From positions 1 to 49,558 of the forward strand of contig JAZROG010000034.1 of the NCBI GenBank assembly GCA_045648605.1: DNA of 49,558 nucleotides. Reading direction: 5' to 3'. The notes under the pieces were generated by a model. That model was not told the origin of the DNA. It saw only the letters and a program-made list of their open reading frames with translations, and made no database searches. The translations under genes and the position numbers were made by a program. This DNA is from Eubacteriales bacterium (lineage in GTDB: Bacteria > Bacillota > Clostridia > Oscillospirales > CAG-272). Of this stretch, positions 22,257 to 49,558 are shown in pieces. The stretch's first letter is position 1; each line of letters opens with the position of its first letter.

Positions 22257-22277
22257 TAAAGACGGAGTTTATAAATC

Positions 22278-22937: not shown

Positions 22938-22945
22938 TTATTGTG

Positions 22946-22982
22946 GGGCTGATTCACAAAACGTGAGTCAGCCCGATTTTTT
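22946..22982 (+). terminator. Intrinsic terminator after jag
   Basis: GGGCTGATTCAC / GTGAGTCAGCCC stem plus T-run. Confidence 0.7.
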
Positions 22983-23015
22983 AGGATGGAAATTTGTATG
23001 AGAAATTGAAAGTGG

Positions 23016-23080
23016 GTTAATCCTCCTTTAGCGCAGCGTAGCGGAGTCGAAGGATCTACGAACGCTAAAGGAGGGCTAAC
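23016..23080. repeat. REP-like stem-loop
   Basis: 18-bp imperfect stem GTTAATCCTCCTTTAGCG / CGCTAAAGGAGGGCTAAC enclosing AGCGTAGCGGAGTCGAAGGATCT. Confidence 0.55.
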
Positions 23081-23132
23081 AGTTCTGAAAAATCCTATTT
23101 ATATTCAAATCATAAAACCAAGAGGCTTTACA

Positions 23133-24530: not shown

Positions 24531-24531
24531 T

Positions 24532-24763
24532 TTTTCCACATCGAAAAATACCCGAAAATTTTACCTCTTGTTTCTTTTTTGTGCAAAACGCAGAAAAAAC
24601 ACTTTCTTTCCAAAAGGTCTTGACAAGATTTCGGATAAGTTTTCCACAGGCAAAATCCACTTTCCGCAAAAAAGAGGCTTGATTTTAATGGGTTTTACAC
24701 AGTTTCAACAGAGTTTTCCACAGTTTTGCACAACCAAGCGCTTTGCAGCGCGAGTTTTCCACA
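24532..24763 (+). promoter_or_regulatory. DnaA-box cluster
   Basis: TTTTCCACA at 24532, 24640, 24714 and 24755, plus variants TTTTACACA (24693), GTTTCAACA (24702), TTTTGCACA (24724) and inverted TTCGGATAA (24630). Confidence 0.75.
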
Positions 24764-24920
24764 TTTGGGCATTATAACGAAAAACGGCTTTTTTCTTCAT
24801 TAAAAAACCTCTTTTGACAGCAAAAAACATGAATTTGTCAAGCACATTATCCTCCTTTTAAAGGGGTGAAGCATATCAGATTTTTTCGTTTTTTATCCAA
24901 GACAAATTCTCATTTAAATC

Positions 24921-24963
24921 AAAAAATCGGCTTTGCCAAATATCATGGCAAAGCCGATTTTTT
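24921..24963 (-). terminator. Terminator of ftsH operon
   Basis: 18-bp stem AAAAAATCGGCTTTGCCA / TGGCAAAGCCGATTTTTT. Confidence 0.88.
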
Positions 24964-24970
24964 AATTCAA

Positions 24971-26992
24971 TTAAAGACCGAAGGGTCTGTCATCATCGGA
25001 ATTTTGCTTATCCTCGATGATATCCTCAGCATCGGATTCGGCATTTGCCTTCTCCTCAGCTTCCTTTGCGGCGTTTTCTTCCGCACGGCGCTCGTTTTCG
25101 GCAGCGCTTTCCTTCTTTTTCTGCTCTGCGATAGCCTCGATCTCTTCCTCTGTGCAGCCATCGTGCTCCATAGCATATTTGAACTGATCGTTATCCATAG
25201 TCTCATGCTTGTAGAGATACTGCGCAACGAAATGAAGCTTGTCAATGTGCTCCGAAAGGTACTCAACGCACTTCTTATAAGCAGAATCTATGATGCTTCT
25301 GACTTCATCGTCAATTTCAGCCGCAGTCTTTTCGGAATAATTCTTGCCCGAGCTGAAATCGCGTCCAAGGAACACCTCGGAGCTGCTATGCTCGCTTCCG
25401 TAAAGGACAGTACCAAGCTTTTCGCTCATACCGTATCTCTCGACCATTGCTCTTGCTATCTTTGTTGCCTGCTGAATATCCTGTGAAGCACCCGTTGAAA
25501 TATCCTCAAGCACAAGCGCCTCCGCAACTCGTCCGCCCATTGAAACGATGATATCGTCTATCATCTCATTCTTTGTCCTGCCAAGCTTATCCTCCTCGGG
25601 AACACGAATGGTAACACCGCCCGCATTGCCCGCAGGGATTATGGTTATATGCTTAACGGGGTCAGAGGTGGGGCAATAGAATGCCGCAACCGCATGACCT
25701 GCCTCGTGGTATGCCACAAGCTTATTATCCTTTTCTCTTCTCTGCTTAGCCTTTTTCTGGGGACCCATGATGATCTTCATATAGGAATCCTCGATCTCAT
25801 CCATACCGATAAGGGATTTATTCCTTCTTGCGGCAAGAAGCGCGGCTTCATTGAGAAGATTTGCAAGGTCTGCACCTGTAAAGCCAACTGTTGACTGCGC
25901 CACCTTCTTAAAGCTTACCGCATCCTCAATGGGCTTATTCTTTGCATGAACGCGAAGTATCTCTTCTCTTCCCTTTATATCGGGATAACCGACAGTTATC
26001 TGTCTGTCAAAGCGTCCAGGACGGAGAAGTGCGGGGTCAAGGATATCGGGGCGGTTTGTTGCCGCAATGACGATAATTCCGTCATTTGAGCCAAAGCCGT
26101 CCATTTCAACAAGAAGCTGATTGAGGGTCTGCTCTCTCTCATCATGTCCGCCGCCGAGACCTGCGCCTCTGTGACGTCCCACAGCGTCAATTTCATCAAT
26201 AAATACTATGCTTGCAGGTGCTTTTCTTGCCTGATCGAAGAGATCTCGAACTCTCGAAGCGCCGACACCAACATACATCTCAACGAAATCCGAGCCGGAA
26301 ATCGAAAAGAAGGGTACATCCGCCTCGCCCGCAACAGCCTTTGCAAGAAGTGTTTTACCCGTACCTGGAGGGCCCATAAGAAGAACGCCGTGAGGAATCT
26401 TTGCGCCAAGCTTTGTATATTTCTTGGGGTCTTTTAAGAATTCAACGACCTCCTTAAGCTCTTCCTTTTCCTCATCAGCACCCGCAACATCGGCAAAAAG
26501 AACCTTCTTCTTATCAGCCGTCGCCATCTTGACTCGAGCCTTTCCGAAGCTGTTTATCTTTCCGCCGCCCTTGCCTGCCATCGAATTCATCACGAATATC
26601 CAGAAAACGATACCCATGATTATGAGGATCGCATAAGGCAGAAGCGATATCCACCACGAATAATTTTTTGCGGGCTTATAATCATATTCGGTTAGGATGC
26701 CCGCAGCCTTCTGTTCGAGTATCAGCTCGCGAAGGTCATTATAAAAAATAGTGATATTGCTGAGCTGATAGCTCGCCATTGTATCATCGGCAAGAGTAAG
26801 CGTTATCTGATTCTTATCGCTCACCTCAAATGCCTTTACCTGTTCCTTTTGGAAATATTCCACAACCTGACTGTAATCATCAAGCTTTTCAATCTTTGCT
26901 TCAGTTGTTTTGAAGATCTGCGTTACAGCCAGAATGATGATTCCTATCAAAACAAGATAAAACAAAATGACCTTAAAATTGCTTTTCATCAA
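24971..26992 (-). CDS. ftsH: ATP-dependent zinc metalloprotease FtsH
   Basis: Two TMs, [28 protein letters not shown]. Confidence 0.99.
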
Positions 26993-27018
26993 TGCTCCTT
27001 ATACCTTTGCAGTAATTT

Positions 27019-27570
27019 TTATTTTTCCTCGTAAACTTCCTTTTTGAGAACACCGACAAAAGGAAGCGCACGGTACATTTCATCATAATCAAGACCAAAG
27101 CCCACAACGAATTTATCGGGAACGACCCTTCCGCAATAATCGGGCTCAAAAACGACCTCTCTGCGGGAAGGCTTATCAAGGAGAGTGCATGTCCTTACAC
27201 TGTGTGCGCCCTTCATGCGCAGATATTCGGTAAGATGCGAAAGGGTTCTTCCGCTGTCGATTATGTCCTCAACTATGATTATATCAATAGAGTGCATATC
27301 CTTTCTCTGAAGATCAAGATGGATATTGATATTTCCCGTTGTTGCAGTTCCCGCGCCATAGGATGAGACCTTCATAAAGTCTATCTCAACAGGCAGCTCT
27401 ATCCTCTTCATAAGCTCACCCATGAAAACAACAGAGCCCTTAAGTATGCAAAGAAGGAGCAGCTTTTTATCGGAATTTTTATAATCCTCGCTTATCCTTG
27501 CGGCGATATCGCGGCATATCTCGCCTATCTCCTCTTCACTTATCAGAATTTCTTCAATGTCTTTATTCAT
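27019..27570 (-). CDS. hpt: Hypoxanthine phosphoribosyltransferase
   Basis: ILKGS, IIVEDIIDSGRTL, LLDKPSRR, FVVGFGLDY. Confidence 0.98.
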   Translation of the reverse strand: MNKDIEEILISEEEIGEICRDIAARISEDYKNSDKKLLLLCILKGSVVFMGELMKRIELPVEIDFMKVSSYGAGTATTGNINIHLDLQRKDMHSIDIIIVEDIIDSGRTLSHLTEYLRMKGAHSVRTCTLLDKPSRREVVFEPDYCGRVVPDKFVVGFGLDYDEMYRALPFVGVLKKEVYEEK

Positions 27571-27588
27571 AAGATCACCGACCTTTCT

Positions 27589-29022
27589 TTATTTATCGTT
27601 CTTGCTCAAAACAGTCAGCTTTATTCGGGCAATACTGTTTCTATCATTATTTTTTATTTTTACTCCGTCCCTTATGGCAATTTCGGGGATGAAAACTATT
27701 CCCTCACCGTCGCACACAATAGGATATGAAGCTCTCGTGCAAAGCCTCAGCTTCTTTTCCGAAAAAAGCTTACGGACATCCTTTGACATTCCGCCGGAGC
27801 GTATTTTATCGCCGCTTTTTCGGCATCGCACGGAAAGATTATCATTTATTTTATCAGATTCAAGATAAACTTGTGTAAATAACTTGTAAATATTTTCCTT
27901 TTCTTTCTGAATTTGCAGTGTTGAATGTGACGGCTCGGTGGAAACAGCTTTTTCAAGGAGCAAAATATAATCTCCGAAAATGTTTTCTCCCTCGGAAAGC
28001 ATAATTTCATCGGGAAGAGACGCCTTTTTTTCGCCTCTTTCACATTCATCCCCAAAAAGCAGTCTGCCATCCTCTATAAAAGCGCGTTTTTTTCCCGGAA
28101 GAGAAAGAGAAGAATGTTCTCTGCCCTTTATAACAAGCTTATAGAGCGCATCAAGATGAGCTCCCTCAAGCATTGAATCGCCGTTCTCACCGTAAAGGCA
28201 GGACACCGCGCGGCAAAAAATGCTTTTTTCAAGCAAGGCAAGCTCGCTTATTTTATTGGCTTCTGCTTTTTTAAGATACTCCTCAGATACAGTGTCAAGA
28301 TAATTTTGATCATCTCTCAAGCTCTCGCAGTTGCGGACAGATGCACCCGCAGCATCGGGATTTATTGCCCGAAGAACAGGCAAAACCGATGCTCTGATGC
28401 TGTTTCTCGCATAGATCTGCTCGGAATTTGTGCTGTCATATACATATTCTATGCCGTTCTCTGCACAAATATCATGTACCTGCTCCTTGGTAAGCGGAAG
28501 AATGGGTCTTATAACGCATCTGCCAACCCCAAGATCTCTCACGGGCGGAATTCCGCAAAGTCCCCGAAGTCCCGTACCTCTTGCAAGCCTGAAAAGAATT
28601 GTTTCCAGATTATCATCCGCATTATGAGCAGTTGCAAGAATGGGGATATCATTTTTTTCCATTATCTCGGCAAAGAAATCATATCGCACATCCCTTGCGG
28701 CACTCTCAATGCTCTTTCCCTTCTCCTTTGCAATGGCGGGAACATCTGCATCAAGTATAAACAGCTCTATTCCCATTTTTTCGCAGACACGGGCACAAAA
28801 ATCCCTGTCTCTTATGGCTTCCTCGCCGCGTATTCCGTGATTCACATGAGCGGCAAAGAGTGAAAATTCATTTTCGCTGCACCAATCATGGAGAGCATAA
28901 AGCAAAAGCGAAGAATCAGCCCCGCCCGAAAAGGCAACGAGTATCTTTTTCTCAAGATTTCGGCTTTCACCGAAAAATGAAAGGAGCATCTCGCTCGGCG
29001 AAGCAAATCCGCCGAGCGGCAT
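27589..29022 (-). CDS. tilS: tRNA(Ile)-lysidine synthetase
   Basis: AFSGGADS, HVNHGIRG, ARDVRY, TAHNADD, RN.IR; start set just after dnaB stop (uncertain). Confidence 0.95.
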   Translation of the reverse strand: MPLGGFASPSEMLLSFFGESRNLEKKILVAFSGGADSSLLLYALHDWCSENEFSLFAAHVNHGIRGEEAIRDRDFCARVCEKMGIELFILDADVPAIAKEKGKSIESAARDVRYDFFAEIMEKNDIPILATAHNADDNLETILFRLARGTGLRGLCGIPPVRDLGVGRCVIRPILPLTKEQVHDICAENGIEYVYDSTNSEQIYARNSIRASVLPVLRAINPDAAGASVRNCESLRDDQNYLDTVSEEYLKKAEANKISELALLEKSIFCRAVSCLYGENGDSMLEGAHLDALYKLVIKGREHSSLSLPGKKRAFIEDGRLLFGDECERGEKKASLPDEIMLSEGENIFGDYILLLEKAVSTEPSHSTLQIQKEKENIYKLFTQVYLESDKINDNLSVRCRKSGDKIRSGGMSKDVRKLFSEKKLRLCTRASYPIVCDGEGIVFIPEIAIRDGVKIKNNDRNSIARIKLTVLSKNDK

Positions 29023-29026
29023 TTTT

Positions 29027-30382
29027 TTAAGCACCGGGAGCTCCGTCCTGTGCAATAGAACGGAACTTGGTATATTTTCCTATCCAACCGACCTTAACGG
29101 TATTGGTCGAGCCGTGTCTGTTTTTGGCAACGATGACCTCGGCGGTGTTTGCCTCCGGAGGCGGCTCGCCGTTATTCTCATCATCCTTTTGATAATATTC
29201 GCTTCTGTAAAGGAAGAGAACCGCATCCGCATCCTGCTCAATAGATCCCGAATCTCGAAGGTCACTGAGCATCGGTCTCTTATCACTGTTCTTTTCCGCC
29301 GCACGGTTAAGCTGCGCACAGCAAAGCACCGGAACATTAAGCTCCTTTGCCATAAGCTTTATTGAACGGGATATCTCCGAGACCTCCTGAGCGCGATTGT
29401 CGCTCTTTCTGTCACTCTGCATAAGCTGCAGATAGTCGATAACAACAAGTCCAAGATTATCAACTCTGCGAAGCTTGGACTTCATACCCATAACGGTGAT
29501 ACCCGCGGTATCGTCAATAAGAATATTACATTTAGACAGCCATTCGGAGGTATGCGCCAGAGCATCCCAATCCTCGGGGGCAAGCTCGCCTGTACGGAGC
29601 TTATGAGAATCTATCATAGCCTCACTTGAAACAACTCTCGTTACAAGCTGCTCGGCAGACATTTCAAGAGAGAATATACAAACAGCCTTCCCCGTTGCTC
29701 TCGCAACATTTGTTCCAACATTCAGAACAAATGAGGTTTTACCCATACCGGGTCTCGCACCCACGATGATAAGGTCGCTCTTTCCCATACCCGCAAGAAC
29801 GCCGTCAAGTCCCGCAAATCCTGTTGCAACGCCCTGTGTGGCTTCCTTATTGGTATTAAGCTCATGCAGATGGTCATAGACCTGCATAAGAGCATCTCTT
29901 ATGTGTGTAAAGCTTTTGGTTTCCTTTTTCTGCGCTATATCGAAGATGGATTTTTCCGCGTTTTCAAGAATATTGTCAACGCTGTCCTGCTCGCTATAAG
30001 CCTTATCGGAAATATCTCCGCTGACCTCAATAAGCTTACGCAGAACGCTCTTATCCTTAACTATCTTTGCATAGTCCTTTATATTCAGCGCGCTTGGAAC
30101 CACCTCGCCGAGAGTTCTGATATAGTCCTCTCCGCCGCTTTTGTCATATACACCGATCTGAACAAGCTGGTCTATAAGGGTTACGATGTCGATAACACCG
30201 TTTTCCCTATAAAGGCACAGCATTGCATCAAATATTTTTGAATGCTCCGAGATATAAAAATCCTCGGGAGCGATCTCACCCGCAATCTGGTTAAGACATT
30301 CGGGGTCTATAAGCACCGAGCCGAGAAGCGACTGCTCCGCGATCATCGAAAATGGCTGTTTTCGGATCATTTCTTCATTCAT
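29027..30382 (-). CDS. dnaB: Replicative DNA helicase
   Basis: AEQSLLG, GARPGMGKT, FSLEMS, IDYLQLM, DLRDSGSIEQDAD, AKNRHG. Confidence 0.99.
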   Translation of the reverse strand: MNEEMIRKQPFSMIAEQSLLGSVLIDPECLNQIAGEIAPEDFYISEHSKIFDAMLCLYRENGVIDIVTLIDQLVQIGVYDKSGGEDYIRTLGEVVPSALNIKDYAKIVKDKSVLRKLIEVSGDISDKAYSEQDSVDNILENAEKSIFDIAQKKETKSFTHIRDALMQVYDHLHELNTNKEATQGVATGFAGLDGVLAGMGKSDLIIVGARPGMGKTSFVLNVGTNVARATGKAVCIFSLEMSAEQLVTRVVSSEAMIDSHKLRTGELAPEDWDALAHTSEWLSKCNILIDDTAGITVMGMKSKLRRVDNLGLVVIDYLQLMQSDRKSDNRAQEVSEISRSIKLMAKELNVPVLCCAQLNRAAEKNSDKRPMLSDLRDSGSIEQDADAVLFLYRSEYYQKDDENNGEPPPEANTAEVIVAKNRHGSTNTVKVGWIGKYTKFRSIAQDGAPGA

Positions 30383-30450
30383 GATTTCAAATCCTTATGT
30401 TTTATTATGTCCGTCTTTCTCAAAAATAATAATTGAAATGACGCAAATAA

Positions 30451-30897
30451 TTATTTTTCGGTAATTACAACATTGATCTTTCCGATGATCTCCGTATAGA
30501 GCTTCACCTCAACGGTATATGAGCCGAAAGCCTTCAGAGGATCGGGAAGAGATATCTTTCTCTTGTCGATGGTGAGTCCGTGATTCTTTTCAAGCGACTC
30601 TGCAATGTCCTTTGATGTAACAGAGCCGTAAAGGCGTCCGTCGCCACCTGCAGACATTGTGAATTTAACGAGAATACCCTCAAGCTTTGCGGCAATATCT
30701 CTTGCCTCTGCCTTTTCAACCTCGATCTTATGCTTAGCGGATGCTTCTCTGTTCTTAAGCTCGTTTATCGCCTTGTTATCTGCGGGAATTGCAAGTCCTC
30801 TTGCAATAAGGAAGTTTCTGCCGTATCCGTCCGAAACCTCGATCATCTGTCCCTTTTTTCCTTGAGCCTTAACGTCCTGTGTAAGAATAACCTTCAT
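30451..30897 (-). CDS. rplI: 50S ribosomal protein L9
   Basis: [32 protein letters not shown]. Confidence 0.99.
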
Positions 30898-30980
30898 TGT
30901 TTTACCTTTCTCCCCATGGTATTTTGCGTTTCCTCCCGGGGAAAGGAGGATTATATTGAATTGATGAATAGTAAATAATT

Positions 30981-33131
30981 TTATTGCCCGATGGTGGGTG
31001 AATTATCAAAGCCCTGTTCTCTGTCGATATTTTCCTTCATGAATTTTTCAACATTTTCGAGAACTATGTCCTCAAATTCGCGCATGGTAAGCTCTTCGCT
31101 TCTTCCGCCGGCATTGTTAAAATTACCTCCACCGACGCCCGCAAGAAGTGCCGCGCAATTCACCTTATTGTTACCCGAGCGTGCGCTGGCATTTATTCTC
31201 GTTCCGCTTCCCGCAATGACGATAGAGGCCATAATGCCCTCCATATTCATAAGTCGGTCTGCAACTCTGCCGATAACGATCTTTGTTTTTGCCTCGTCCG
31301 AAAGGCCCTCGCCGCGGCAAAGAGCAATTCTTCCGTTGCTTATAAGACGCATACTTGAGCCGATGGAGTATTCTGCCGCAAATGTTTCATAATCCACATC
31401 GAATAATTTTTTTGCTCTTTCTGCCTTTGCACTTGAACGGCTGAGGTATTCTGCCGCCGCATAGGTCTTGCTGCTGGCATATTGGGTGAAATTCTTGGTA
31501 TCAAGCATGATTCCCGAAAGAAGCGCGGTGGCTTCCTCTCCGAGCAGCTTTGAGTGGTGAAGTGATATCTCAAGAACTCCCGAAACTATCTCGGATGCCG
31601 AGGAGCAGGAGGTATCGATATAGGCAAAATCACTCTCGGCTGTTATGTCATTTTTCTCATGGTGGTCGATAATAACTATCTTTCCGCCTGTTTTTTCGCG
31701 AAGTGCTCTGTAAAGATTGGGGCTTTCCATATTCCGAGTGCAGTTCACATCGGTTATAATAAGAAGCGTATCGCTTCTCACAAGCCGCATTGCCTCTGCC
31801 TCGCAGATAAATCTGCCCTCATATTCCTCTTTTTCTCTTATATCCTCGGTGATCCTTATAAAATTCTCATCATCGGGATCATTTATAACGATATGCCAAT
31901 CATCCCTTATATCCGATACCAATCTTGCGATTCCGATACCGCTTCCGATGCTGTCATAGTCGGGACGGCTGTGACCCATAATAAGGACTCCTCCGCTCTC
32001 GCTTATAAAACGGCGCAGAGTATTACCTATCCTTCTGTATTCGCCCGTTCCGCCGCTTACCGCCTTTCTTCTGTCCCGTCCGTAGTAGGTTATCTCACCC
32101 GCGGTATTGATAACAGCCTTATTTCCGCTCTTTCTCTGCTCAAATGCGATATCCGCATTTCTCATTCGCTCGGAAAGGTTGTTTCCCGTAGCGGAAAAGC
32201 CCATAGAAACGGTAAGCTCGTCCTCTTTTGTTGAAACAGCCTCACGAATGGTATCGAGAATGGGGAATTTATCTCTTATGCAGCGTCCGAGAGAGCTTAG
32301 CGGCATCATAATGATGAATTTTCTTGTTTCAGGCTCAAATATGGAGCCGTCAAGATGAAGCACCCAGTCGCTCAGCAGCTCTCTGACCTTATCGGAGGCA
32401 TCCTTTTCGGAAATTCCCGACGAATTTGAGAAGGCCTTGAGGTCATCGATCTCGACTCTACCCATAACTATCGTCTCATTTTCAAGTCTTCTTGCCACAG
32501 AGATAAGCTGCTTCTTTTCCTCTGTGATATCAATGAGAGTTGTAAGATAATATACGCCCTTTGTGGGGTCTGCGGTCTTTTTCAGATCACCAATAAGAGT
32601 TTCGGTGCTCTGAATTATGATATATCTGATACCGTCCTCATCATCCGCTGTCTTATACTGAAGCTCAACCCTTTCATTTACCGAGCGCGCGATGACCTCG
32701 GGTGAAACAAAGGGCATAACCTCAGAAACAGAGGGCATAAACCCATGTGCCTTCTTCTCAAAAAGCTCGTGCGCCGCATGATTATGCTTGACGATTATTC
32801 CATTTTCGTTGGTAATGATATAGGGAAACACCATATTATCAAGCATCCTGTCAAAGCGATGAAGGATAAGCTCGCGTCTTGTGGCAGTTCTGCCGAGAAT
32901 GGCAAGCAGTGTTACCACCGTAAAAACAGCAAAAGCATACAAAACGGTGGCAAAAACAAGCAGAGAAAATCCTCCGATCTCGGTAAATGCGCTAACAAGC
33001 CATACAAGGGAGAGTATCAGAGCACCAATGCCCGTGCAAAGGAAAAATGCAAGCGGATAGTTGAAATAGGTATTCCTTTTTCCGACAATTCTTTTTTCCC
33101 TATCGGGAGCCTTATTTTCATTATTGTTCAC
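30981..33131 (-). CDS. gdpP: GdpP-like cyclic-di-AMP phosphodiesterase (TM-PAS-degenerate GGDEF-DHH/DHHA1)
   Basis: Two TMs, [34 protein letters not shown]; synteny with yybS-rplI-dnaB. Confidence 0.85.
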
Positions 33132-40458: not shown

Positions 40459-41357
40459 TTCTCCTCCCTTCTTCTGCCCGTAACAGCAAGGAAAACATCG
40501 TCCATTTTTCCCTTTGTCACCTCAAAATCCTTTATCAGATCCGGATTATTTCTTATCAGCTCTGCGGCAGCAAAGGAATTTGGAATATTAAGCCTGAAGG
40601 CATCTCCCACCGCTTCATATGAATAACCAAAGGACTTTATCTGCTCCTCGCTTGCGCCGTAAACTGTCATAAAATCCCCGGCATATTGATTTTTAAGCTC
40701 ATTTGGTGAACCCGATGCTACGATGCTTCCGCGCTCGATAATGACCACATTGTCTGCTTCTGCCGCCTCTTCCATATAATGTGTTGTGAGAAAAACAGTC
40801 ATGTTTTCCTCGCGGCGAAGCATCGCAACGATCTCCCAAACATTTTTCCTTGTCTGTGGGTCAAGACCGGTTGTAGGCTCATCAAGGATCAGCAAACGTG
40901 GCTTATGAAGAAGCGCACGGGCAATATCTACCCTTCGTCTTTGACCGCCCGAAAGCTTTTTTACAGGGCGATTCATTATCTCGCAAAGGTCAAAAAGCGA
41001 AGAAAGCTCCTTAAGCCTTTCCTCAAAATCCCTTCCGCAAATTCCGTAAAGTGCCGCACGGGAGCACAGATTCTCCCTTACGGTAAGTGCCCTGTCAAGA
41101 ACAGAATTCTGAAAGACCACACCGATAAGGCTCTTGATTTTATCCCCATCCTTATCAATATCAAAGCCGCCGACCCTCACTTCTCCGCCATCACGCGCAA
41201 GCACGCCGCAAATTATCGAAATAGCAGTACTCTTTCCTGCCCCGTTTACACCGAGGAAGGAAAAAAGCTCACCCTCCTTTACGGAGAAGCTCACATCCTT
41301 TACAGCCTCAACATCTCCAAAGCTCTTTTTCAGAGAGTTAATTTCTATTATGTTCAT
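40455..41357 (-). CDS. ABC transporter ATP-binding protein (DrrA-like)
   Basis: [34 protein letters not shown]. Confidence 0.96.
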
Positions 41358-41430
41358 AGCTTACCTCCCATTGTTGATATCAAAATGATATCACAAACAT
41401 CTCGCATTGTCAATCAGCAAAAACAATTAT

Positions 41431-41940
41431 TTACATTTTGTTAACACAGCCTGAAATCCTTTTAAAAACAAGCTCGGCAGTTTTTTTGATGTGTCCGGGC
41501 AAGGGTATCTCCTCTCCATTCCGCACTATTTTACCTGCCAAAACCTCCTCGCGACTCACAAAATAAAATTCCTTGCTCTCGCCCGAAAGCGGAGATAGCG
41601 GCGTGGCTTCATCAAAATCCTCAGGAAAAAGTGCTATATAAACAAAATCCAGATTCTGAACAGGGTCTTTTACGTTTTCGTGCAGTAAAAATGCGGGACT
41701 CGGAAGAAAAAATCCGTTTATCTCTTCAATTTTCTTGCCGTTTTCATCCGCGAGATATGCTTTTATCCCCGATTCCTCGTAAATTTCACGCAAAACCGCC
41801 TCGTGTGGCAGCTCATGCGGCTGAATATGACCTCCGAGGGGATAAAGCTGACCGAATTTTTTATGCTTGTGAAGCAATATTTTTTGAGTCTTTTCATCAT
41901 ATAAATAGGCAGTTGCCGTCATAGTTCTGTTATAAATCAT
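41431..41940 (-). CDS. Nudix hydrolase
   Basis: Nudix box GGHIQPHELPHEAVLREIYEESG. Confidence 0.9.
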   Translation of the reverse strand: MIYNRTMTATAYLYDEKTQKILLHKHKKFGQLYPLGGHIQPHELPHEAVLREIYEESGIKAYLADENGKKIEEINGFFLPSPAFLLHENVKDPVQNLDFVYIALFPEDFDEATPLSPLSGESKEFYFVSREEVLAGKIVRNGEEIPLPGHIKKTAELVFKRISGCVNKM

Positions 41941-42067
41941 AATAACCTCTCTTTCCTTCAGGTAATATTAACACATTCCGTCACTTTTGTCAACAAAAAG
42001 TGAATATTTTTATATTTAAAAATCCATTCCAATAGGATATAATAGAAAAAAACGGAGGTACAAAAAT

Positions 42068-42501
42068 ATGCTTAAAGGAATACCGAAAATAATTTTCCCG
42101 AGCTTTTAAAGGTTCTTTGCGAGATGGGACACGGAGACAGAATAGTTATTGCAGACGAAAATTTTCCCTCAGAGTCAATGGGAAAGGATGCAATCGTTAT
42201 AAGATGCGACGGCCACGGAGTGCCCGAGCTTCTAAAAGCCATTCTTGAGCTTTTCCCTCTTGATACTTATGTTGAAAAGCCTGTAAAGCTTATGGAGGTC
42301 GTAAAGGGCGACAAGGTCGAAACACCTATCTGGGATGTCTATAAGAGCATCATCGCAAAGCAGGACGCAAGAGGAGCGGATGCGGTTGGAAACATCGAAA
42401 GATTTGCCTTCTATGAGGAAGCGAAGAAGGCATATGCCATCATTGCCACAGGCGAAAGCGCACTTTATGCCAACATAATGCTCCAAAAGGGCGTTGTTTG
42501 A
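42068..42501 (+). pseudogene. fucU: L-fucose mutarotase (FucU/RbsD family), frameshifted near codon 10
   Basis: GGAGGT RBS and MLKGIPKII in one frame stop at TAA (42107-42109); PELLKVLCEMGHGD...ERFAFYE..ATGESALYANIMLQKGV continues in the other frame. Confidence 0.8.
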
Positions 42502-42533
42502 TTTTAAATAGGGATAGTTTCCCCGCACCGATT

Positions 42534-42576
42534 ATATAACAAAAGACAAGGCGATTTGCCTTGTCTTTTGTTATAT
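42534..42576. terminator. Bidirectional terminator
   Basis: 19-bp stem ATATAACAAAAGACAAGGC / GCCTTGTCTTTTGTTATAT. Confidence 0.85.
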
Positions 42577-42584
42577 TCAAAATC

Positions 42585-43589
42585 TTAAAGCAGCTTAATT
42601 CCGCGCTTTTCACATTCAAGAACAACATCCTTTGGCCAGAAGGAGGACTGCACCTCTCCGATATGCGCCTTGCGGAGGAAAAACATACAAATTCTCGACT
42701 GTCCAATACCGCCACCGATGGTATAAGGAAGCTCGCCCGCAAGAAGCGCCTTGTGGAAAGGAAGCGACTTTCTTTCCTCGCATCCACGCTCCTTAAGCTG
42801 TCTTTGGAGCGCCTCCTCGTCAACTCTTATACCCATTGAGGAAAGCTCAAGTGCGATATCAATAACAGGATAATAAACTATCAGATCTCCGTTAAGTGAC
42901 CAATCATCATAGTCGGGTGCTCTGCCGTCATGTGCGCTTCCCGAGCGGAGCTTTCCGCCTATCTGCATAAGGAAGATCGCGCCGTACTCCCTTGAAGCGG
43001 CATATTCCCTCTCCTTTGGTGTAAGGTCGGGATACTTATCCTCAAGCTCCTGTGTTGTGATAAAGGTTATATCCTCGGGCAGGAAGCTTTCGATGAAATT
43101 ATAGTCATCAACGATATAATTTTCCGTGTGACGGATAGCGGCATAGATATTTGTAACCGCCTTTTTCAGAGTTTCAATGGTTCTCTGCTCCTTTGTGATT
43201 ATCTTTTCCCAGTCCCACTGGTCAACAAAGAGCGAGTGGATATTGTCTGTCTCTTCATCACGGCGAATAGCATTCATATCGGTATAAAGGCCCTCGCCAA
43301 CCTTGAAATCATATTGCTTCAGCGCCATTCTCTTCCATTTAGCAAGAGACTGAACTATCTCAAATTTTTCTCCCGAAAAAACCGAAAAATCAACGGGACG
43401 CTCAATACCGCTGAGAGTGTCGTTAAGGCCGCTTGTGGATTCCACAAAAAGGGGAGCGGAAACACGGGTCAGATTAAGTCCGATAGCAAGATCTCGCTCA
43501 AAGAAATCCTTTACCTTTTTAATTGCAAGCTCGGTCTGTCTGACCGTGAGATGAGAGGAATACCCATCCGGTATATAAAGCTTTGACAT
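42585..43589 (-). CDS. asnA: Aspartate--ammonia ligase
   Basis: VQSLAKWKR, GLYTDMNAIRRDE, VDQWDWE, RAPDYDDW, GGGIGQSR. Confidence 0.98.
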   Translation of the reverse strand: MSKLYIPDGYSSHLTVRQTELAIKKVKDFFERDLAIGLNLTRVSAPLFVESTSGLNDTLSGIERPVDFSVFSGEKFEIVQSLAKWKRMALKQYDFKVGEGLYTDMNAIRRDEETDNIHSLFVDQWDWEKIITKEQRTIETLKKAVTNIYAAIRHTENYIVDDYNFIESFLPEDITFITTQELEDKYPDLTPKEREYAASREYGAIFLMQIGGKLRSGSAHDGRAPDYDDWSLNGDLIVYYPVIDIALELSSMGIRVDEEALQRQLKERGCEERKSLPFHKALLAGELPYTIGGGIGQSRICMFFLRKAHIGEVQSSFWPKDVVLECEKRGIKLL

Positions 43590-43645
43590 TTAAACCACCT
43601 CTAATAAAAAATACCCTATTATTTTACCTTTTTTTTCGCCTTTTG

Positions 43646-43893
43646 TCAATCCCCAAGTATGCTTTTTTCGTGTTTAGAGCCTACAAATCCGATTTTTTTG
43701 AAGTCCTCGGGGTTCTTTCTGATGATATAATCTATGTAAGAAGCCACCATTTTTGCGGTGAAGATATATCCCATGGGGTTAAGATGACCCATGAGGAAAA
43801 ATGCTTTGGTAAATTCCGCGTCATATTCGGGACCGTACTTGCGGATATCAAGGGGCATCTCGCCCTCTCTTACATAAAATCTCTTATATCCAT
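43646..43893 (-). pseudogene. Internally deleted, frameshifted remnant (probably SGNH/GDSL hydrolase)
   Basis: GGAG RBS, ATG at 43893 and MDIRDF, then a frameshift into VREGEMPLDIRKYGPEYD...GHLNPMGY...; only a C-terminal GH.N..GY block is left. Confidence 0.55.
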
Positions 43894-44027
43894 ATTTAAA
43901 TTCTCCAAATAACCGTCATTTATGGTGATTATACACCTCTTTTCGCTTTTTGTCAATATTTTGTATTGAAATAATCCGTTTTTTGTGTTAAAATAGATAC
44001 CGTATTATAAAAGAAAGGAGAAAAAGC

Positions 44028-46634
44028 ATGAAAAGACTTACTCTCGGAATTCTTGCCCATGTTGATGCCGGAAAAACAACACTTTCGGAGGCATTGCTCT
44101 TTAAATGCGGCACCATAAGAAAGGTCGGCAGAGTTGACCATAAGGATGCCTTTCTTGACACCTTTTCGCTGGAGCGCGAAAGAGGAATAACCATCTTTTC
44201 AAAGCAAGCACTGCTTAATTTTTCTCCCGAATGTCAAATGACTCTCCTTGACACCCCCGGTCATGTGGATTTTTCGGGGGAAGCGGAAAGAACGCTAAGA
44301 GTTCTCGACTATGCAATTCTCGTTATCAGCGCATCGGAGGGTATTCAGGCGCACACCTCCACCATCTGGCAGCTTCTTATGCGCTATCGGATACCAACCT
44401 TTATCTTTATAAACAAAACCGACCTTCCCTCCCCCATAAGAGAGGTCACCATGCGCGCGCTGAAGGATCGCTTTGGCGACGGCTGCATAGATTTCGGAAG
44501 CGAAAGCATGAAAGAGGAGATATCTCTTCTCTCCGAGGAGCTTCTTGATGACTATATCGAGGGAAGCTTAACAGATGAAAGGCTTGATGATGGAATAAAA
44601 GAGCTTATCGCATCCCGTCGTCTTTTCCCCTGCTTTTTCGGCTCGGCACTTAAGCTTTCAGGCGTTGATGAGCTTTTTGAAGTACTCCAAAAATACACCT
44701 TACAGAAAAAATACTCCGAAAAATTCGGAGCAAAGGTATATAAGATAACAAGAGATGAGAGCGGAAACCGCCTCACCCACATGAAGATAACAGGCGGTTC
44801 TCTTTCTGCCAAGACCGTGCTTGACCTTGGGGATGACAAGAGCGAAAAGGTCGATCAGATAAGAATATATTCAGGCTCGAAATTCACCCCCTGCGAGAGA
44901 GTAGAGGCAGGTCAGATATGCGCGGCAACAGGCTTGGAATCCACATATGGAGGTCAAGGTATCGGAATCGAAATGGAGTCCCCCGAAACGGTTCTTGAGC
45001 CTGTACTAACATACAGAATAATCCCGCCAAAGGACTGCAATGTGACCGAGCTTTATTCCTTTATCCGCCGTCTTGAAGAGGAGGACCCCGGCCTTTCCTC
45101 CATATGGAACGAAAGGCTGTGTGAGATACACGTCAAGGTAATGGGCGAGGTTCAGCTTGAGGTTTTGAAGCGTGTTATACTTGACAGATACGGAATTGAT
45201 GTGGATTTTGACGAGGGTAACATCGTCTATAAAGAAACCATCGAGGGAGCTTCGTTCGGAGTTGGTCATTTTGAGCCGCTGCGTCATTATGCAGAGGTGC
45301 ATCTGATGCTTGAGGGCACGGGCGAGGGCAGCGGACTCAGCTTTGACAGCCTTTGCAGTGAAAATCTTCTCGAAAAGAATTGGCAAAGGCTCATTATGTC
45401 TCATCTCGGAGAGAAGCAGCACATGGGAGTGCTTACAGGCTCCCCCATAACAGATATGAGAATCACCCTCATGGCAGGAAGAGCCCACAAAAAGCACACC
45501 GAGGGCGGAGATTTCAGACAGGCAACATACAGAGCCGTCCGCCAAGGACTTATGAGGGCAAAAAGCACACTTCTTGAGCCTTATTACGATTTCAGACTTA
45601 TAGTTCCCGAGGAAAATATCGGCAGAGCCATTTCTGATATCGGACTTATGAACGGAAGCTTTTCACCTCCGGAAATTGAGAGCGAGGGATTTATGCTTCT
45701 TTGCGGATCAGCGCCCGTAAGGGAAATGAGAAGCTATGCAAAGGATGTAAGCGCTTATACAAAGGGAAAAGGTCGCCTTACCCTAAATTTCGGCGGCTAT
45801 AAAAAATGTCACGATGCCGAAAATATCATATCCGAAATAGGATATGATGCGGAGCGAGATCCCGAAAACAGCGCAGATTCGGTATTTTGTGCGGCAGGTG
45901 CAGGATTCCTTGTGAAATGGGACGAGGTTGAAGAGCATATGCACATCGAGGATTTTTACAGAAAAGAGCCCGATGACTCGGATAGCGAAAATACAATTCT
46001 CGGCGGAGGCAGCATAAGCTCAAGAGGTGCGCTGTCTTATGAAGAAAATGTAATAATGGACAAGGAGCTTAAAGCCATTTTCGAGCGCACCTTCGGCCCG
46101 ATAAAAAAGAGAGCCTTGCCACCCGAGAGGGTCGTTCGTGATTACAGCAAGGAAAAGCCGAAAAAGCCAAAGGCATCAAAGGCTTATCTGCCCGAATATC
46201 TCTTGGTTGACGGCTATAATATCATTTTTGCTTGGGACGAGCTGAAAAAGATTGCAGAGGATAATCTCAATCTTGCGAGAAAGCTTCTGACCGACATTCT
46301 TTGTAATTATCAAGGCTTCAAGGATTGCGGCGTCATTCTCGTTTTTGATGCGTATAAGGTGGCAGGCGGAAAAGGCTCTGTTGAAAAGCACGGCGGCATC
46401 CATGTGGTATATACAAAGGAGGCAGAAACCGCCGATGCATATATCGAGCGAGTGACCCTCGAAATGGCAAAAAAATACCGCGTGAGGGTTGCAACATCGG
46501 ATAATCTTGAGCAGATGATAGTCCTTGGACACGGAGCAGAAAGGATACCCGCAAGAATATTCTATGAGGAGGTCTGTCAGGTGCGCCGTGAAATAGATGA
46601 GGAGCTTGATAAATTCAGAAAGCCCAATGCTTAA
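44028..46634 (+). CDS. EF-G/TetM-like translational GTPase fused to C-terminal NYN (YacP/Rae1-like) RNase domain
   Basis: AHVDAGKTT, RGITI, DTPGH, NKTD, SAL; domains III-V (MGEVQLEV, LLEPYY); C-terminal LLVDGYN, VFDAY, ETADAYIE, VATSD. Confidence 0.92.
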   Translation: MKRLTLGILAHVDAGKTTLSEALLFKCGTIRKVGRVDHKDAFLDTFSLERERGITIFSKQALLNFSPECQMTLLDTPGHVDFSGEAERTLRVLDYAILVISASEGIQAHTSTIWQLLMRYRIPTFIFINKTDLPSPIREVTMRALKDRFGDGCIDFGSESMKEEISLLSEELLDDYIEGSLTDERLDDGIKELIASRRLFPCFFGSALKLSGVDELFEVLQKYTLQKKYSEKFGAKVYKITRDESGNRLTHMKITGGSLSAKTVLDLGDDKSEKVDQIRIYSGSKFTPCERVEAGQICAATGLESTYGGQGIGIEMESPETVLEPVLTYRIIPPKDCNVTELYSFIRRLEEEDPGLSSIWNERLCEIHVKVMGEVQLEVLKRVILDRYGIDVDFDEGNIVYKETIEGASFGVGHFEPLRHYAEVHLMLEGTGEGSGLSFDSLCSENLLEKNWQRLIMSHLGEKQHMGVLTGSPITDMRITLMAGRAHKKHTEGGDFRQATYRAVRQGLMRAKSTLLEPYYDFRLIVPEENIGRAISDIGLMNGSFSPPEIESEGFMLLCGSAPVREMRSYAKDVSAYTKGKGRLTLNFGGYKKCHDAENIISEIGYDAERDPENSADSVFCAAGAGFLVKWDEVEEHMHIEDFYRKEPDDSDSENTILGGGSISSRGALSYEENVIMDKELKAIFERTFGPIKKRALPPERVVRDYSKEKPKKPKASKAYLPEYLLVDGYNIIFAWDELKKIAEDNLNLARKLLTDILCNYQGFKDCGVILVFDAYKVAGGKGSVEKHGGIHVVYTKEAETADAYIERVTLEMAKKYRVRVATSDNLEQMIVLGHGAERIPARIFYEEVCQVRREIDEELDKFRKPNA

Positions 46635-46760
46635 TTTTTGTTGAAAATTATACTGTTTTAACGATTTTTCCGTCTGTTTTTTATCGGAAAATGTCATTGA
46701 AAATCGCATTTTTGCGTGATATAATATATAAGCGTTTTGAATTATAAGGAGATGTGGATC

Positions 46761-48053
46761 TTGAAAAATTTCTATCTTAAGCCAAAGTTCTTTTCAGTAA
46801 TTAAAGATTATAGCGGAAAGCAATTTGTTTCCGACCTTATCGCAGGTATTATCGTTGCGATAATTGCCCTTCCCCTTTCCATTGCCTTGGCGCTCGCATC
46901 CGGTGTTGCTCCCGAAAAGGGAATCTATACCGCTGTTGCCGCAGGCTTTGTTGTGGCGCTCCTCGGTGGAAGCAGAATTCAGATCGCGGGCCCAACGGCG
47001 GCCTTTGCCACCATCGTTGCGGGCATTGTTGCCGCAAACGGACTTGACGGACTCTTTATTGCAACCGTCATTGCGGGAATTTTGCTTATACTTATGGGTA
47101 TCCTCAAATTCGGAAGCCTTATCAAGTTTATTCCCTTTACCATCACAACAGGCTTCACCTCGGGTATTGCGGTTACCATCCTTATCGGGCAGATAAAGGA
47201 TTTCCTCGGTCTTACATATGCAGAAGGAGTAAAACCCATCGAGGCTATCGAAAAGCTTGAAGCAAATTTTGAGGCTATCGGAACATTTTCATGGCAAGCA
47301 CTTCTTGTTGGTGCGGTATGCCTTGCGATTCTCATAATTTATCCCAAGATAGAAAAGCGTATTCCTCCGTCACTTATCGCGGTTGTGGTCGGCGCACTTA
47401 TGGTAAAATTCATTCCCGGTCTTGACGGTGGAGTTTTCACCATCGGCGAGCTTTATACCATTCCAAAGGGACTTCCAAGCGTTGATTTCGGCAGCTTTGA
47501 TTTCAGCATGGAGAAGATAACTGCTGTTCTTCCCGGTGCATTTACCATCGCCATCCTTGCGGCAATAGAATCGCTTCTTTCATGCGTTGTTGCCGACGGA
47601 ATGGTGAATTCCAAGCATAATTCCAATGCAGAGCTTGTGGCTCAGGGCGCGGCAAATATAGCCTCCGTTTTCTTTGGCGGTATTCCGGCAACGGGTGCTA
47701 TTGCAAGAACAGCGGCAAATGCGAAAAACGGCGGCAGAACTCCCGTTGCGGGCATGGTTCATTCGGTTGTACTTTTGCTTGTTCTTCTTTTCCTTATGCC
47801 CCTTGCGGGACTTATACCAATGCCCACCATTGCGGCTATCCTCTTTATGGTTGCATATAACATGAGTGAGTGGAGAAAGTTTGTGGCTATTATCAAATCT
47901 GCCCCCGTAACAGATATTATCGTTATGATAGTAACCTTCATTCTTACCGTTATCTTTGACCTTGTGGTAGCAATTGCGGTTGGTCTCGGCCTGGCAGTTG
48001 TATTCTTCATCCTTAAGAAATATATTTTCAAAAATAAAGCTGTAAAGGACTAA
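46761..48053 (+). CDS. SulP/SLC26 anion transporter lacking STAS domain
   Basis: DLIAGIIVAIIALPLSIALA, GGSRIQIAGPT, AIESLL, NAELVAQG, TGAIART; TTG start after AAGGAGA. Confidence 0.93.
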   Translation: MKNFYLKPKFFSVIKDYSGKQFVSDLIAGIIVAIIALPLSIALALASGVAPEKGIYTAVAAGFVVALLGGSRIQIAGPTAAFATIVAGIVAANGLDGLFIATVIAGILLILMGILKFGSLIKFIPFTITTGFTSGIAVTILIGQIKDFLGLTYAEGVKPIEAIEKLEANFEAIGTFSWQALLVGAVCLAILIIYPKIEKRIPPSLIAVVVGALMVKFIPGLDGGVFTIGELYTIPKGLPSVDFGSFDFSMEKITAVLPGAFTIAILAAIESLLSCVVADGMVNSKHNSNAELVAQGAANIASVFFGGIPATGAIARTAANAKNGGRTPVAGMVHSVVLLLVLLFLMPLAGLIPMPTIAAILFMVAYNMSEWRKFVAIIKSAPVTDIIVMIVTFILTVIFDLVVAIAVGLGLAVVFFILKKYIFKNKAVKD

Positions 48054-48055
48054 TC

Positions 48056-48937
48056 ATGTACGAGCTTATACAGGTAAGTGAAAGCTGTTATTATATCCAA
48101 AGCCCCGCTAAGATAGGTCTTATCAAGGTGGGCGAGAGCGAGGTCGTTCTCATAGACAGCGGCAATGATAAGGATGCAGGCCGCAAGGTGAGAGCGATCC
48201 TTGATTCAAAGGGATGGAAGCTTAATGCTATTTATAACACCCATTCAAATGCCGACCACATCGGAGGCAATAAATATCTTCAGGGGCGGACAGGCTGTGA
48301 GGTCTATGCTTCGGGAATCGAGGCTGATTTCACCAATCATCCCATTCTTGAGCCCTCCTTTCTTTACGGAGGTTATCCTTCAAAGGATCTGAGACATAAG
48401 TTCCTTATGGCGCAGGAAAGTGATGCAAAGCCCTTGAGTGAGGCGGTTATGCCAAAGGGCATGGAAATGATCCCCCTGCCGGGACATTTCTTTGATATGG
48501 TTGGCTTTAAATATGAAAATGTCGTTTACCTTGCTGACTGTCTTTCAAGCAAAGAGACCCTTGATAAATACGGAATCGGATTTATCTATGATGTTAAGGC
48601 TTATCTTTGTACCCTTGAGGCGGTAAAGCAAATGGAGGCGGAATATTTTGTTCCCTCCCATGCCGATGCCTGCACCGATATTCGTCCCCTTGCTCAGTAT
48701 AATATTGATAAGGTTAATGAAATAGCGGACAGAATAACAGATATTTGCAATGAGTCCCTTAATTTTGAAAGGATACTTCAAAAGCTTTTTGAGGTCTACA
48801 ATTTGAAAATGACCTTTGAGCAGTATTGCTTGGTAGGCTCAACGGTACGCTCATATCTTACCTATTTAAAGGATAATGGCGAGCTTGAATTTATATTTGA
48901 AAATAATATGATGTTATGGCACAAGGCTATTTCTTAA
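48056..48937 (+). CDS. Metallo-beta-lactamase fold hydrolase
   Basis: LIDSG, THSNADHIGG, LPGH, YLAD, PSH. Confidence 0.9.
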   Translation: MYELIQVSESCYYIQSPAKIGLIKVGESEVVLIDSGNDKDAGRKVRAILDSKGWKLNAIYNTHSNADHIGGNKYLQGRTGCEVYASGIEADFTNHPILEPSFLYGGYPSKDLRHKFLMAQESDAKPLSEAVMPKGMEMIPLPGHFFDMVGFKYENVVYLADCLSSKETLDKYGIGFIYDVKAYLCTLEAVKQMEAEYFVPSHADACTDIRPLAQYNIDKVNEIADRITDICNESLNFERILQKLFEVYNLKMTFEQYCLVGSTVRSYLTYLKDNGELEFIFENNMMLWHKAIS

Positions 48938-48944
48938 GCTACTA

Positions 48945-48973
48945 AAAACAGGTTGCATTTTGCAACCTGTTTT
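48945..48973. terminator. Bidirectional terminator
   Basis: AAAACAGGTTGCA-ttt-TGCAACCTGTTTT. Confidence 0.85.
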
Positions 48974-48978
48974 GTATT

Positions 48979-49558
48979 TTATTCTACTGCCGCTTTTTTG
49001 GAGGTTATTTTTCTTATTCTTTCGGTGTTGAATTTAGGCTTGCGGTCATAGGTGTAAAGTCCGTTTACCTCGGTCTCTATATCATAAAGCTGGGTGTAGC
49101 AGAAGGCAGAGATCCCTCTGTTATCAAGAAGGGCATGGGTGAGCTTTTCATAGCGCTCATAAAATTCCTCCTCGGTTTTGGGAGCGTTTCCGTAACCCCA
49201 GTCGTTGCCTGTGCGTTCTTCGCTGTCAACTATCCAGGAAGCGCCGCCGTATTCCGAGAGGAAGCAGAGCTTGTTTGATTTTTCCCAAACAGGCTTCTTA
49301 TAGAGGGTTTCATGGATATATTCGCATTCCTTGCCCTCATGAAGGGGAGCATAACGCTCCTTGAAGGAAACGGGATCCTGATTATAGTCATGGCAATCAA
49401 GCATATCATAGCAGCCCTCAACATGATGGAAGCCGGATACACCGATGAAAAGGCGGGTGGGGTCATATGCCTTTGTGGTTTCGTAAAGGTGGCGAATCAG
49501 TTCCACATCTACGTTATGACCTGTTTCGTTCATAGGGCACCAGCCTATTATTGCAGGG
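48979..49558 (-). CDS. Glycoside hydrolase family 2 (beta-galactosidase/glucuronidase-like), C-terminal part
   Basis: Frame runs to the window edge: PAIIGWCPMNE (acid/base), DPTR, SEYGG (nucleophile), FCYTQLYDIETEVNGLYTYDR. Confidence 0.9.
   Translation of the reverse strand, partial: PAIIGWCPMNETGHNVDVELIRHLYETTKAYDPTRLFIGVSGFHHVEGCYDMLDCHDYNQDPVSFKERYAPLHEGKECEYIHETLYKKPVWEKSNKLCFLSEYGGASWIVDSEERTGNDWGYGNAPKTEEEFYERYEKLTHALLDNRGISAFCYTQLYDIETEVNGLYTYDRKPKFNTERIRKITSKKAAVE

Follow-up and report, generated by a model that had tools for sequence, protein, structure and literature searches.

A TetM-like GTPase joined to a Rae1-type nuclease in Clostridia, a candidate single-chain factor acting on stalled ribosomes

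The Bacillus subtilis nuclease Rae1 (YacP) is a free protein of ~170 amino acids (aa) encoded in a cysS-rlmB-rae1-sigH locus, and studies from 2025–2026 make it central to a Gram-positive collision-rescue pathway named CART (PMC12407103, PMC13622287, 10.64898/2026.10.09.757949). According to the same studies, Rae1 cuts the mRNA between ribosomes, where the stalled ribosome borders on the trailing one, and needs an open reading frame (ORF) long enough for several collided ribosomes, and its cuts yield material on which trans-translation can act; how Rae1 sits on collided ribosomes is described as structurally unsolved (10.64898/2026.10.09.757949). The three texts mention neither the fusion nor EF-G, a relevant GTPase or Clostridia. 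Clostridial fusions of a TetM-like GTPase to an NYN_YacP domain are already in print (Atkinson 2015, PMC4342817; Matelska 2017, PMC5499597), reported there for "ten species" or "some Clostridia" with their function left open. Here we analyze such a gene at 44028..46634 (+ strand) of contig JAZROG010000034.1 of a Eubacteriales bacterium (assembly GCA_045648605.1, CAG-272), of which the 49,558 nt that were studied are called the window. The encoded protein belongs with the catalogued fusions, sharing their architecture without a difference in kind: its Rae1-type domain stands C-terminal to a 640-aa GTPase, at a locus other than that of B. subtilis rae1. We think it probable that the protein is an orthologue of Rae1 that carries its own GTPase for docking on the ribosome and would cut mRNA at stalled or collided ribosomes. 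What is new here is the either/or phyletic pattern of fused and standalone forms, the placement of the GTPase as sister to the Tet proteins, the signatures of its clade, a structured C-terminal extension of the GTPase, and a conserved minimum tether length.

The fusion is genuine and widespread among relatives. The first-pass annotation of the window, made from its letters alone, described one uninterrupted 868-aa ORF and raised the prospect of an assembly chimera. The ORF list of the window indeed holds a single uninterrupted frame with an ATG start (868 codons plus stop), and neither strand of the same region has another frame comparable to it. A chimera was rejected, as the same architecture is present in 120/120 best homologues from a 5.8-billion-protein collection (all with the NYN domain, 846–931 aa, from 91% down to 56% identity), in 145/150 best representatives of 50%-identity clusters (GTPase signature region plus NYN domain, down to ~42% identity), and as a pattern scan with one genome per species gave at least 651 matching stretches. 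The five remaining representatives are three unfused proteins (642–706 aa) and two with other C termini. In the latter two (P0249, 873 aa, and P0233, 914 aa) a different C terminus replaces the NYN domain of a clade GTPase, running in P0249 into aminotransferase-like sequence, and these may be gene-call or assembly joins. Eighty loci examined among the at least 651 include Intestinimonas butyriciproducens, Faecalibacterium prausnitzii, Flavonifractor, Blautia, Ruminococcus, Anaerovorax odorimutans, Fusibacter, and many metagenome-assembled genomes (MAGs) of Oscillospiraceae and Lachnospiraceae; the fused copy of Monoglobus pectinilyticus is annotated as "translation factor GTPase family protein". 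The protein studied here combines in one chain the loop signatures GH[FY]EPL[RK]HY and xKHTEGGDFR, a DSVFC..GAG extension, a tether, and a C-terminal NYN_YacP domain. In public sequencing runs the gene is covered by fragmentary low-depth contigs; one DNA contig spans 45950–46261 with no differences and may stem from the window's own source sample, so it is not independent. Uncovered parts of the gene carry no information in such data.

Judged from their residues, the GTPase and nuclease modules are both intact and under strong constraint. The G1–G5 motifs, EF-G-type domains and acidic NYN motifs of the first-pass annotation could all be located in the translation, and Pfam agrees, with scores for the significant domain matches far beyond chance (all features given here lie on the + strand). 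The G domain (residues 4–223, 44037..44696) matches GTP_EFTU at 2.7e-47 and contains G1 AHVDAGKTT, G2 RGIT, G3 DTPGH, G4 NKTD, and G5 SAL. In an alignment of 55 fusions that are 40–73% identical to the query, D13, G15, K16, T17, T55, D75–H79, K130, and D132 are invariant, so that the G1–G4 residues, including the catalytic His79 of DTPGH, do not vary. EF-G-type domains II and III (residues 233–394, 44724..45209) correspond to Pfam EF-G_D2 (233–305) and EFG_III (324–394), with an AlphaFold2 (AF2) pLDDT of ~90; the EF-G_D2 match is weak (18.7 bits, below the cut-off of 27), and domain II is modeled with pLDDT above 90. Domain IV (residues 399–512, 45222..45563; EFG_IV, 5.6e-15) bears the clade-specific tip loops GHFEPLRHYAEV and AHxKHTEGGDFR, which are near-invariant across the 55 fusions as GVGHFEPLRHYAEV and AHxKHTEGGDFRQAT; in the translation, HFEPLRHYAEV occupies residues 414–424 and AHKKHTEGGDFR residues 486–497. 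Domain V follows at residues 515–596 (45570..45815; EFG_C, 2.8e-17). With G1–G5, the catalytic His of DTPGH, and domains II–V all present, the module is an EF-G-type GTPase. It shares the fold and G motifs of EF-G (fusA) and EF-G2 at ~24% identity, while the EF-G domain IV tip (GGxGQYGHV / SYHDVDSS) is unlike that of the fusion. An AF2 model built from the fusion alignment (mean pLDDT 87, pTM 0.69) is confident for the five GTPase domains, for residues 597–640, and for the NYN domain (723–867). The best Foldseek matches of the model in the PDB are ribosome-bound EF-G, with E-values down to 7.7e-53, and the closest solved relatives by sequence are TetO, EF-G, and TetM, at ~1e-65.

Between domain V and the nuclease the first-pass annotation had placed a low-complexity linker. 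That description suits residues 646–670 and 695–718, which are disordered in the AF2 model (pLDDT <50), but not residues 597–640, a folded extension, or 671–689, a helix. The extension (45816..45947) is modeled as a helix, a beta-hairpin, and a short helix (pLDDT 86–90) and carries the motif GYDxExD..N..DSVFC.(H)GAG..V.W..(M)H, in which S618, F620, and G624 are invariant across the 55 fusions. It is also found in unfused relatives, whose proteins stop directly after it, and its insertion of ~25 residues is absent from the Tet and EF-G rows of a 34-row alignment. Across 45807–45947 (residues 594–640), Cys594 is ~80% conserved and Cys621 and His639 at least 90%, and position 623 is His in ~60% of fusion sequences and Ala in this protein; that this Cys/His set forms a small metal-binding knuckle is speculation. 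The tether proper (residues 641–722, 45948..46193) consists of a variable disordered segment, the semi-conserved helix (pLDDT 63–71, consensus D.EL..IFERTYG), and a second disordered segment that is net basic in 52/55 fusions. Its length ranges from 58 to 101 residues (median 72) and never falls below 58. A complex prediction between the GTPase (1–640) and the helix plus NYN domain (668–868), run without controls, gave a score of 0.01 and a mark of 0.32, values that argue neither for nor against docking of the nuclease on the GTPase.

The nuclease domain (residues 723–868, 46194..46631) matches Pfam NYN_YacP (PF05991) over residues 725–865 at 5.2e-47, scoring 160.4 bits against a cut-off of 24.6, and has the GYN motif after its first Asp. 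The acidic motifs lie at 726–730 (VDGYN), 772–774 (VFD), 801–807 (TAD..IE), and 823–825 (TSD); D728, Y730, N731, D774, D803, and D825 are invariant in the 55 fusions and G729 nearly so. The domain aligns to residues 3–142 of B. subtilis YacP (PDB 5MQ8/5MQ9) at 5.5e-22 and shares with it the GYN motif and all four acidic active-site residues, D728 and D803 aligning with Rae1 D7 and D81. The double mutant D7N D81N is the published catalytically dead form of Rae1 (PMC10351889). In the subgroup of fusions to which this protein belongs, the domain misses the last ~22 positions of the Pfam profile (match 1–143 of 166).

These features bear on what the nuclease might cut. One alternative is that it acts on 16S or 23S rRNA, or on the A-site tRNA, reached from the decoding center, as part of ribosome maturation, of quality control, or of turnover during starvation. 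In its standalone form, yacP shares an operon with rlmB, cysS, and, per Matelska 2017, mrnC, and early authors therefore proposed a role in rRNA or tRNA processing (PMC4342817, PMC5499597); the basic tract ahead of the NYN domain would suit binding of structured RNA, and the invariant domain IV tip implies a conserved ribosomal contact. Every mapped substrate of Rae1 is nevertheless an mRNA, cut in a translation-dependent manner (10.64898/2026.10.09.757949, PMC12407103, PMC10351889), and the fused domain, which retains the catalytic residues of Rae1 and has 43% identity to a standalone clostridial Rae1, shows nothing that points to rRNA. We regard an rRNA or tRNA target as unlikely, if the least unlikely of the distinct rivals to mRNA cutting on stalled ribosomes.

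The GTPase is related to the tetracycline-resistance proteins, and the first-pass annotation had suggested that it is probably not one of them, a view that model scores, loop sequence, and tree placement all uphold. Tet(M) and Tet(O) (PDB 3J9Y, 4V6V) are the nearest characterized clade and share with the fusion the five-domain plan, the GTPase length, and both the length and the (A/G)DFR end of domain IV loop 3. They differ in lacking the ~25-residue extension insertion and in their other loop residues, and the fusion gene is chromosomal and not mobile. The best NCBIfam model, tet_protect (NF012153), reaches 395.7 bits against a cut-off of 775, tet_protect_M_W 260.8 against 1100, and the Tet(M) model 208.4 against 1420; all EF-G, EF-G2, and specific Tet models stay below their own cut-offs, and unfused clade relatives obtain 379–452 bits with tet_protect. 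By tblastn, the GTPase is 27.8% identical to Tet(M), ~28% to Tet(W), 28.4% to Tet(S), 29.9% to Tet(Q), 32.1% to TetB(P), and 24.5% to a plasmid EF-G.

The tip of domain IV separates the groups as well. In Tet proteins, the loop 3 residues (Y/F)(Y/F)SP(V/A)ST contact the tetracycline site. Aligned to TetO, the fusion has GRAHKKHTEGGDFR opposite GLYYSPVSTPADFR, loops of equal length in which HKKHTE takes the place of YSPVST, whose absence the first-pass annotation had already noted. SP[VA]ST occurs in 0/26 rows of the clade and 6/6 Tet rows, the clade rows having instead an xKHTEGGDFR-like loop 3 (SYH(D/E)VDSS in 2/2 EF-G rows) and, in 26/26 cases, GH[FY]EPL[RK]HY as loop 1. A maximum-likelihood tree of the GTPase (34 rows, 651 columns; 17 fused, 9 unfused, and 6 Tet proteins, with a two-row outgroup of the EF-G and EF-G2-like proteins that the genome itself encodes) answers the call of the first-pass annotation for a phylogeny with EF-G and Tet proteins. 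The Tet clade (support 100/98) and the clade of fused plus unfused proteins (100/99, stem 1.17) are sisters, so the GTPase branches outside the Tet proteins. The basal branches of the fusion-containing clade are formed by five unfused clostridial proteins plus one representative, and all 17 fused rows group with three unfused ones, among them a gene from a Ligilactobacillus salivarius megaplasmid, at 97/95. Taken together, these comparisons indicate a GTPase that is Tet-like in plan and not a member of the Tet family. The Ligilactobacillus salivarius plasmid pHN3 (L006:3530-5920) encodes an unfused 644-aa clade GTPase of 47.6% identity that divergently adjoins rpsN (ribosomal protein S14) and is annotated as a TetM/TetW/TetO/TetS-family resistance protein.

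A role in ribosomal protection or resistance, in which the GTPase would clear tetracycline or some other ligand from the A site in the manner of Tet(M) and Tet(O) and the nuclease would add a second step, as speculated by Atkinson 2015 (PMC4342817), has to be weighed against this background. Besides the kinship already described (tet_protect as best NCBIfam model, TetO as best PDB match by sequence, a domain IV loop of Tet length ending in GDFR), it could draw on database labels, as relatives are listed under TetM/TetW/TetO/TetS-family or GTPase names, much as the first-pass annotation had expected, and on a MATE-like efflux gene, named from its sequence only, that neighbors the fusion in 6/77 related loci. 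The scores far below Tet cut-offs, the 27–32% identity, the absence of SP[VA]ST from 26/26 clade rows, and the sister placement speak against it, as do a core chromosomal setting that is free of mobile elements and resistance cassettes, the apparent lack of space for a leader or attenuator (below), and the replacement of housekeeping rae1 by this gene. We consider resistance quite improbable, and cutting of mRNA on stalled ribosomes more likely than tetracycline resistance. The TetM/TetW/TetO/TetS labels widely carried by fusions would inflate resistome counts in gut metagenomes, and our tests argue that the label is wrong.

Fused and standalone forms of Rae1 replace one another across genomes, among the matches listed. 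The window's genome (1.91 Mb, 153 contigs, 92% complete) yields one NYN_YacP match in a profile search, the fusion itself; the standalone rae1 that the first-pass annotation wanted looked for is thus not found in this 92% complete assembly. Its three EFG_IV matches are EF-G, an EF-G2-like protein (on contigs C68 and C62), and the fusion, and the ORF that comes after rlmB on contig C14 encodes 979 aa and is not rae1. In four other genomes, standalone rae1 (168–172 aa) occupies a cysS-rlmB-rae1 locus, followed by sigH in 3/4. The GTPase signature occurs in 29/401 genomes of a phylum-level sample; a sample of 400 genomes from the class of the window's genome has NYN_YacP in 261, nearly always as a single match, and the GTPase signature region (E ≤ 1e-35) in 166, so that, compared with the "ten species" or "some Clostridia" of earlier reports, the group now extends to 166/400 class genomes and at least 651 species-level stretches. 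GTPase matches listed (150 of 168) fall in frames of 843–934 aa (140) or 650–789 aa (ten, some at contig ends). NYN matches listed (150 of 265) fall in frames of 734–934 aa (89, in 88 genomes), 169–216 aa (60), or 351 aa (one), and among them no genome has both a fused and a standalone form, while all 88 genomes with a long frame are GTPase-positive. The single 351-aa frame, in genome G121, is accompanied by a GTPase region match (1.9e-68) and may be a broken or split fusion copy. In much of Clostridia, the natural form of Rae1 is one joined to a factor-site GTPase, which provides a concrete hypothesis for its recruitment.

The history of the fusion can be read from two trees. In an NYN tree of 43 rows, 23/24 standalone domains lie on one side of a 95/86 branch, and the opposite side holds the 19 fused domains plus the one remaining standalone domain, that of genome G259. 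Two changes of the fused label are needed on the GTPase tree (one suffices in 13% of bootstrap trees) and two on the NYN tree. This is consistent with the modules having fused long ago, once or a few times, and having stayed joined since; a single origin is not proven. Genome G259 (L089:3115-5211 and L093:2195-2713) also has an unfused clade GTPase, alongside standalone rae1 in a cysS-rlmB locus, and may for that reason resemble the pre-fusion state.

The two modules might also be functionally independent, the fusion merely co-regulating a GTPase that has a rescue or housekeeping role of its own with a Bacillus-like Rae1. Unfused GTPases exist with or without rae1, Rae1 works alone in B. subtilis (PMC12407103, 10.64898/2026.10.09.757949), and the tether is predicted to be largely disordered. 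Yet the fusion is kept in 145/150 representatives down to ~42% identity, the tether spans at least 58 residues in every fusion of the alignment and includes a semi-conserved helix and a basic tract, and the fused forms cluster in both the GTPase and the NYN trees. To us this makes mere co-regulation improbable, somewhat more so than an rRNA or tRNA target.

A Rae1 orthologue that docks on the ribosome through its own GTPase is the explanation that we favor; a GTP-driven delivery of the nuclease to stalled ribosomes is inferred from the families of the two domains. In the mechanism that we propose, the GTPase would dock in the factor-binding site of a ribosome unable to proceed, in our preferred version the trailing one in a collision, whose translocation is blocked. 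On the ribosome the factor site is found at the side where mRNA enters, and this position, combined with a cut at the boundary of stalled and trailing ribosome, would favor binding to the trailing one. The tether, with its minimum of 58 residues and its basic tract, would let the nuclease reach the mRNA between ribosomes, GTP hydrolysis would serve as a timer, release, or reset step, and after the cut the ribosomes would pass to tmRNA and SmpB. The window's genome encodes SmpB, tmRNA, MutS2, and RqcH, and both known post-collision rescue routes are therefore available. MutS2 (RqcU), in which an NTPase is coupled to a nuclease-type SMR domain, recognizes collided ribosomes, and SmrB and Cue2 cut mRNA at collisions (10.64898/2026.10.09.757949); their resemblance to the fusion is one of concept and a functional analogy only, since the folds are unrelated and MutS2 is a separate protein in this genome. 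Combining a GTPase-dead with a nuclease-dead mutant, the fusion could offer a handle for trapping the ribosome complex.

Several observations weigh against this interpretation. An unfused clade GTPase is present, at another locus, in 8/60 standalone-rae1 genomes listed, and a hand comparison within the class sample finds nine genomes with the GTPase and no NYN_YacP match. Each module can thus exist without the other; Rae1 is not dependent on this GTPase, which may in turn have a function of its own. The gene is also dispensable and has been lost repeatedly, because 9/14 sampled genomes of the window genome's order, all 99–100% complete, carry neither module (G060, G093, G123, G177, G230, G256, G308, G333, and G356), the fusion being present in 5/14. 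An operon link to smpB, ssrA, or rqcH was not found in 77 related loci. The requirement for a trailing ribosome is pure inference from general ribosome geometry. Sole support for transcription comes from a 262-nt RNA-library contig that is identical over 46335–46596 and may be DNA carry-over. A protective role against some A-site ligand is conceivable because the closest characterized GTPases are resistance proteins, at the low probability given above for resistance. As the first-pass annotation had supposed, no experimental study of any fusion member was found in the full-text literature searched, which covers few subscription journals.

A bolder version of the favored reading, which we put forward only tentatively and think somewhat doubtful, is that the GTPase is an unrecognized housekeeping sensor of untranslocatable ribosomes. 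Seated in the factor site of the trailing ribosome, it would use GTP as a timer that licenses the tethered nuclease, making the protein a single-chain bacterial no-go-decay factor and a "Rosetta stone" that explains the way in which nucleases of the Rae1 type locate collided ribosomes. If this were true, the mobile Tet proteins would be the sister lineage of chromosomal rescue GTPases, suggesting that resistance arose from a ribosome-rescue factor.

The surroundings of the gene have the character of a core chromosome, and the gene itself that of a housekeeping gene. Upstream in the window are genes for PFL, holB, yidC, mnmE, ftsH, tilS, dnaB, and gdpP, with an ABC transporter, a NUDIX protein, RbsD/FucU, and AsnA as further upstream neighbors; on the downstream side, the fusion is followed by genes for a SulP permease and an MBL-fold protein. 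The region 21081–33131 is a housekeeping run of the type found near replication origins (yidC-like 60KD_IMP, mnmE, ftsH, tilS, dnaB, and a GdpP-type c-di-AMP phosphodiesterase). Recent horizontal acquisition was rejected, as the GC content of the fusion gene (0.44–0.48) is like that of its flanks and its neighbors are core genes. No neighbor family recurs in more than 6/77 related loci. PIN and NYN nucleases are common toxin domains, and a ribosome-targeted design would suit a toxin or an anti-phage abortive-infection nuclease that shuts down translation. PADLOC gave no match, however, no partner or antitoxin gene is conserved in the 77 loci, and this single-copy core gene, present in 166/400 sampled genomes, substitutes for housekeeping rae1, all of which makes a toxin or defense role the most far-fetched of the alternatives.

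In 3/77 loci the fusion is immediately followed, on the same strand, by a YlmH-like S4-domain gene (L013:5735-6478, L085:8549-9295, and L031:8670-9425), at gaps of 11, −13, and 120 nt; it is not in this window. YlmH belongs to ribosome rescue, which makes this gene the one neighbor with a related theme and a point in favor of the preferred reading. Two of the three genes were scanned, and their best NCBIfam model is TIGR03069 at 75–84 bits, below its cut-off of 201.55.

Upstream of the start codon, a Shine-Dalgarno-like AAAGGAG (44014..44020) lies 7 nt before the ATG. A consensus scan places a promoter-like site, TTGAAA-17-TAAAAT with an upstream TG, at 43966..43994, ending ~33 nt before the start codon; it is weak evidence because the scan of the region found 7 sites where 5.4 are expected. 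The interval between this site and the ATG seems too short to hold a leader peptide or attenuator of the tet(M) type, and an Rfam scan of 41000–49558 at gathering thresholds returned zero matches and hence no riboswitch or leader beside the gene. The SulP permease gene next downstream has its own promoter-like site, and the fusion gene therefore looks monocistronic. On the − strand, at 43928–43956, a perfect 12/12 sigma-70-like promoter match (TTGACA-17-TATAAT) faces the divergent asnA and shares a 438-nt intergenic region with the promoter-like site of the fusion.

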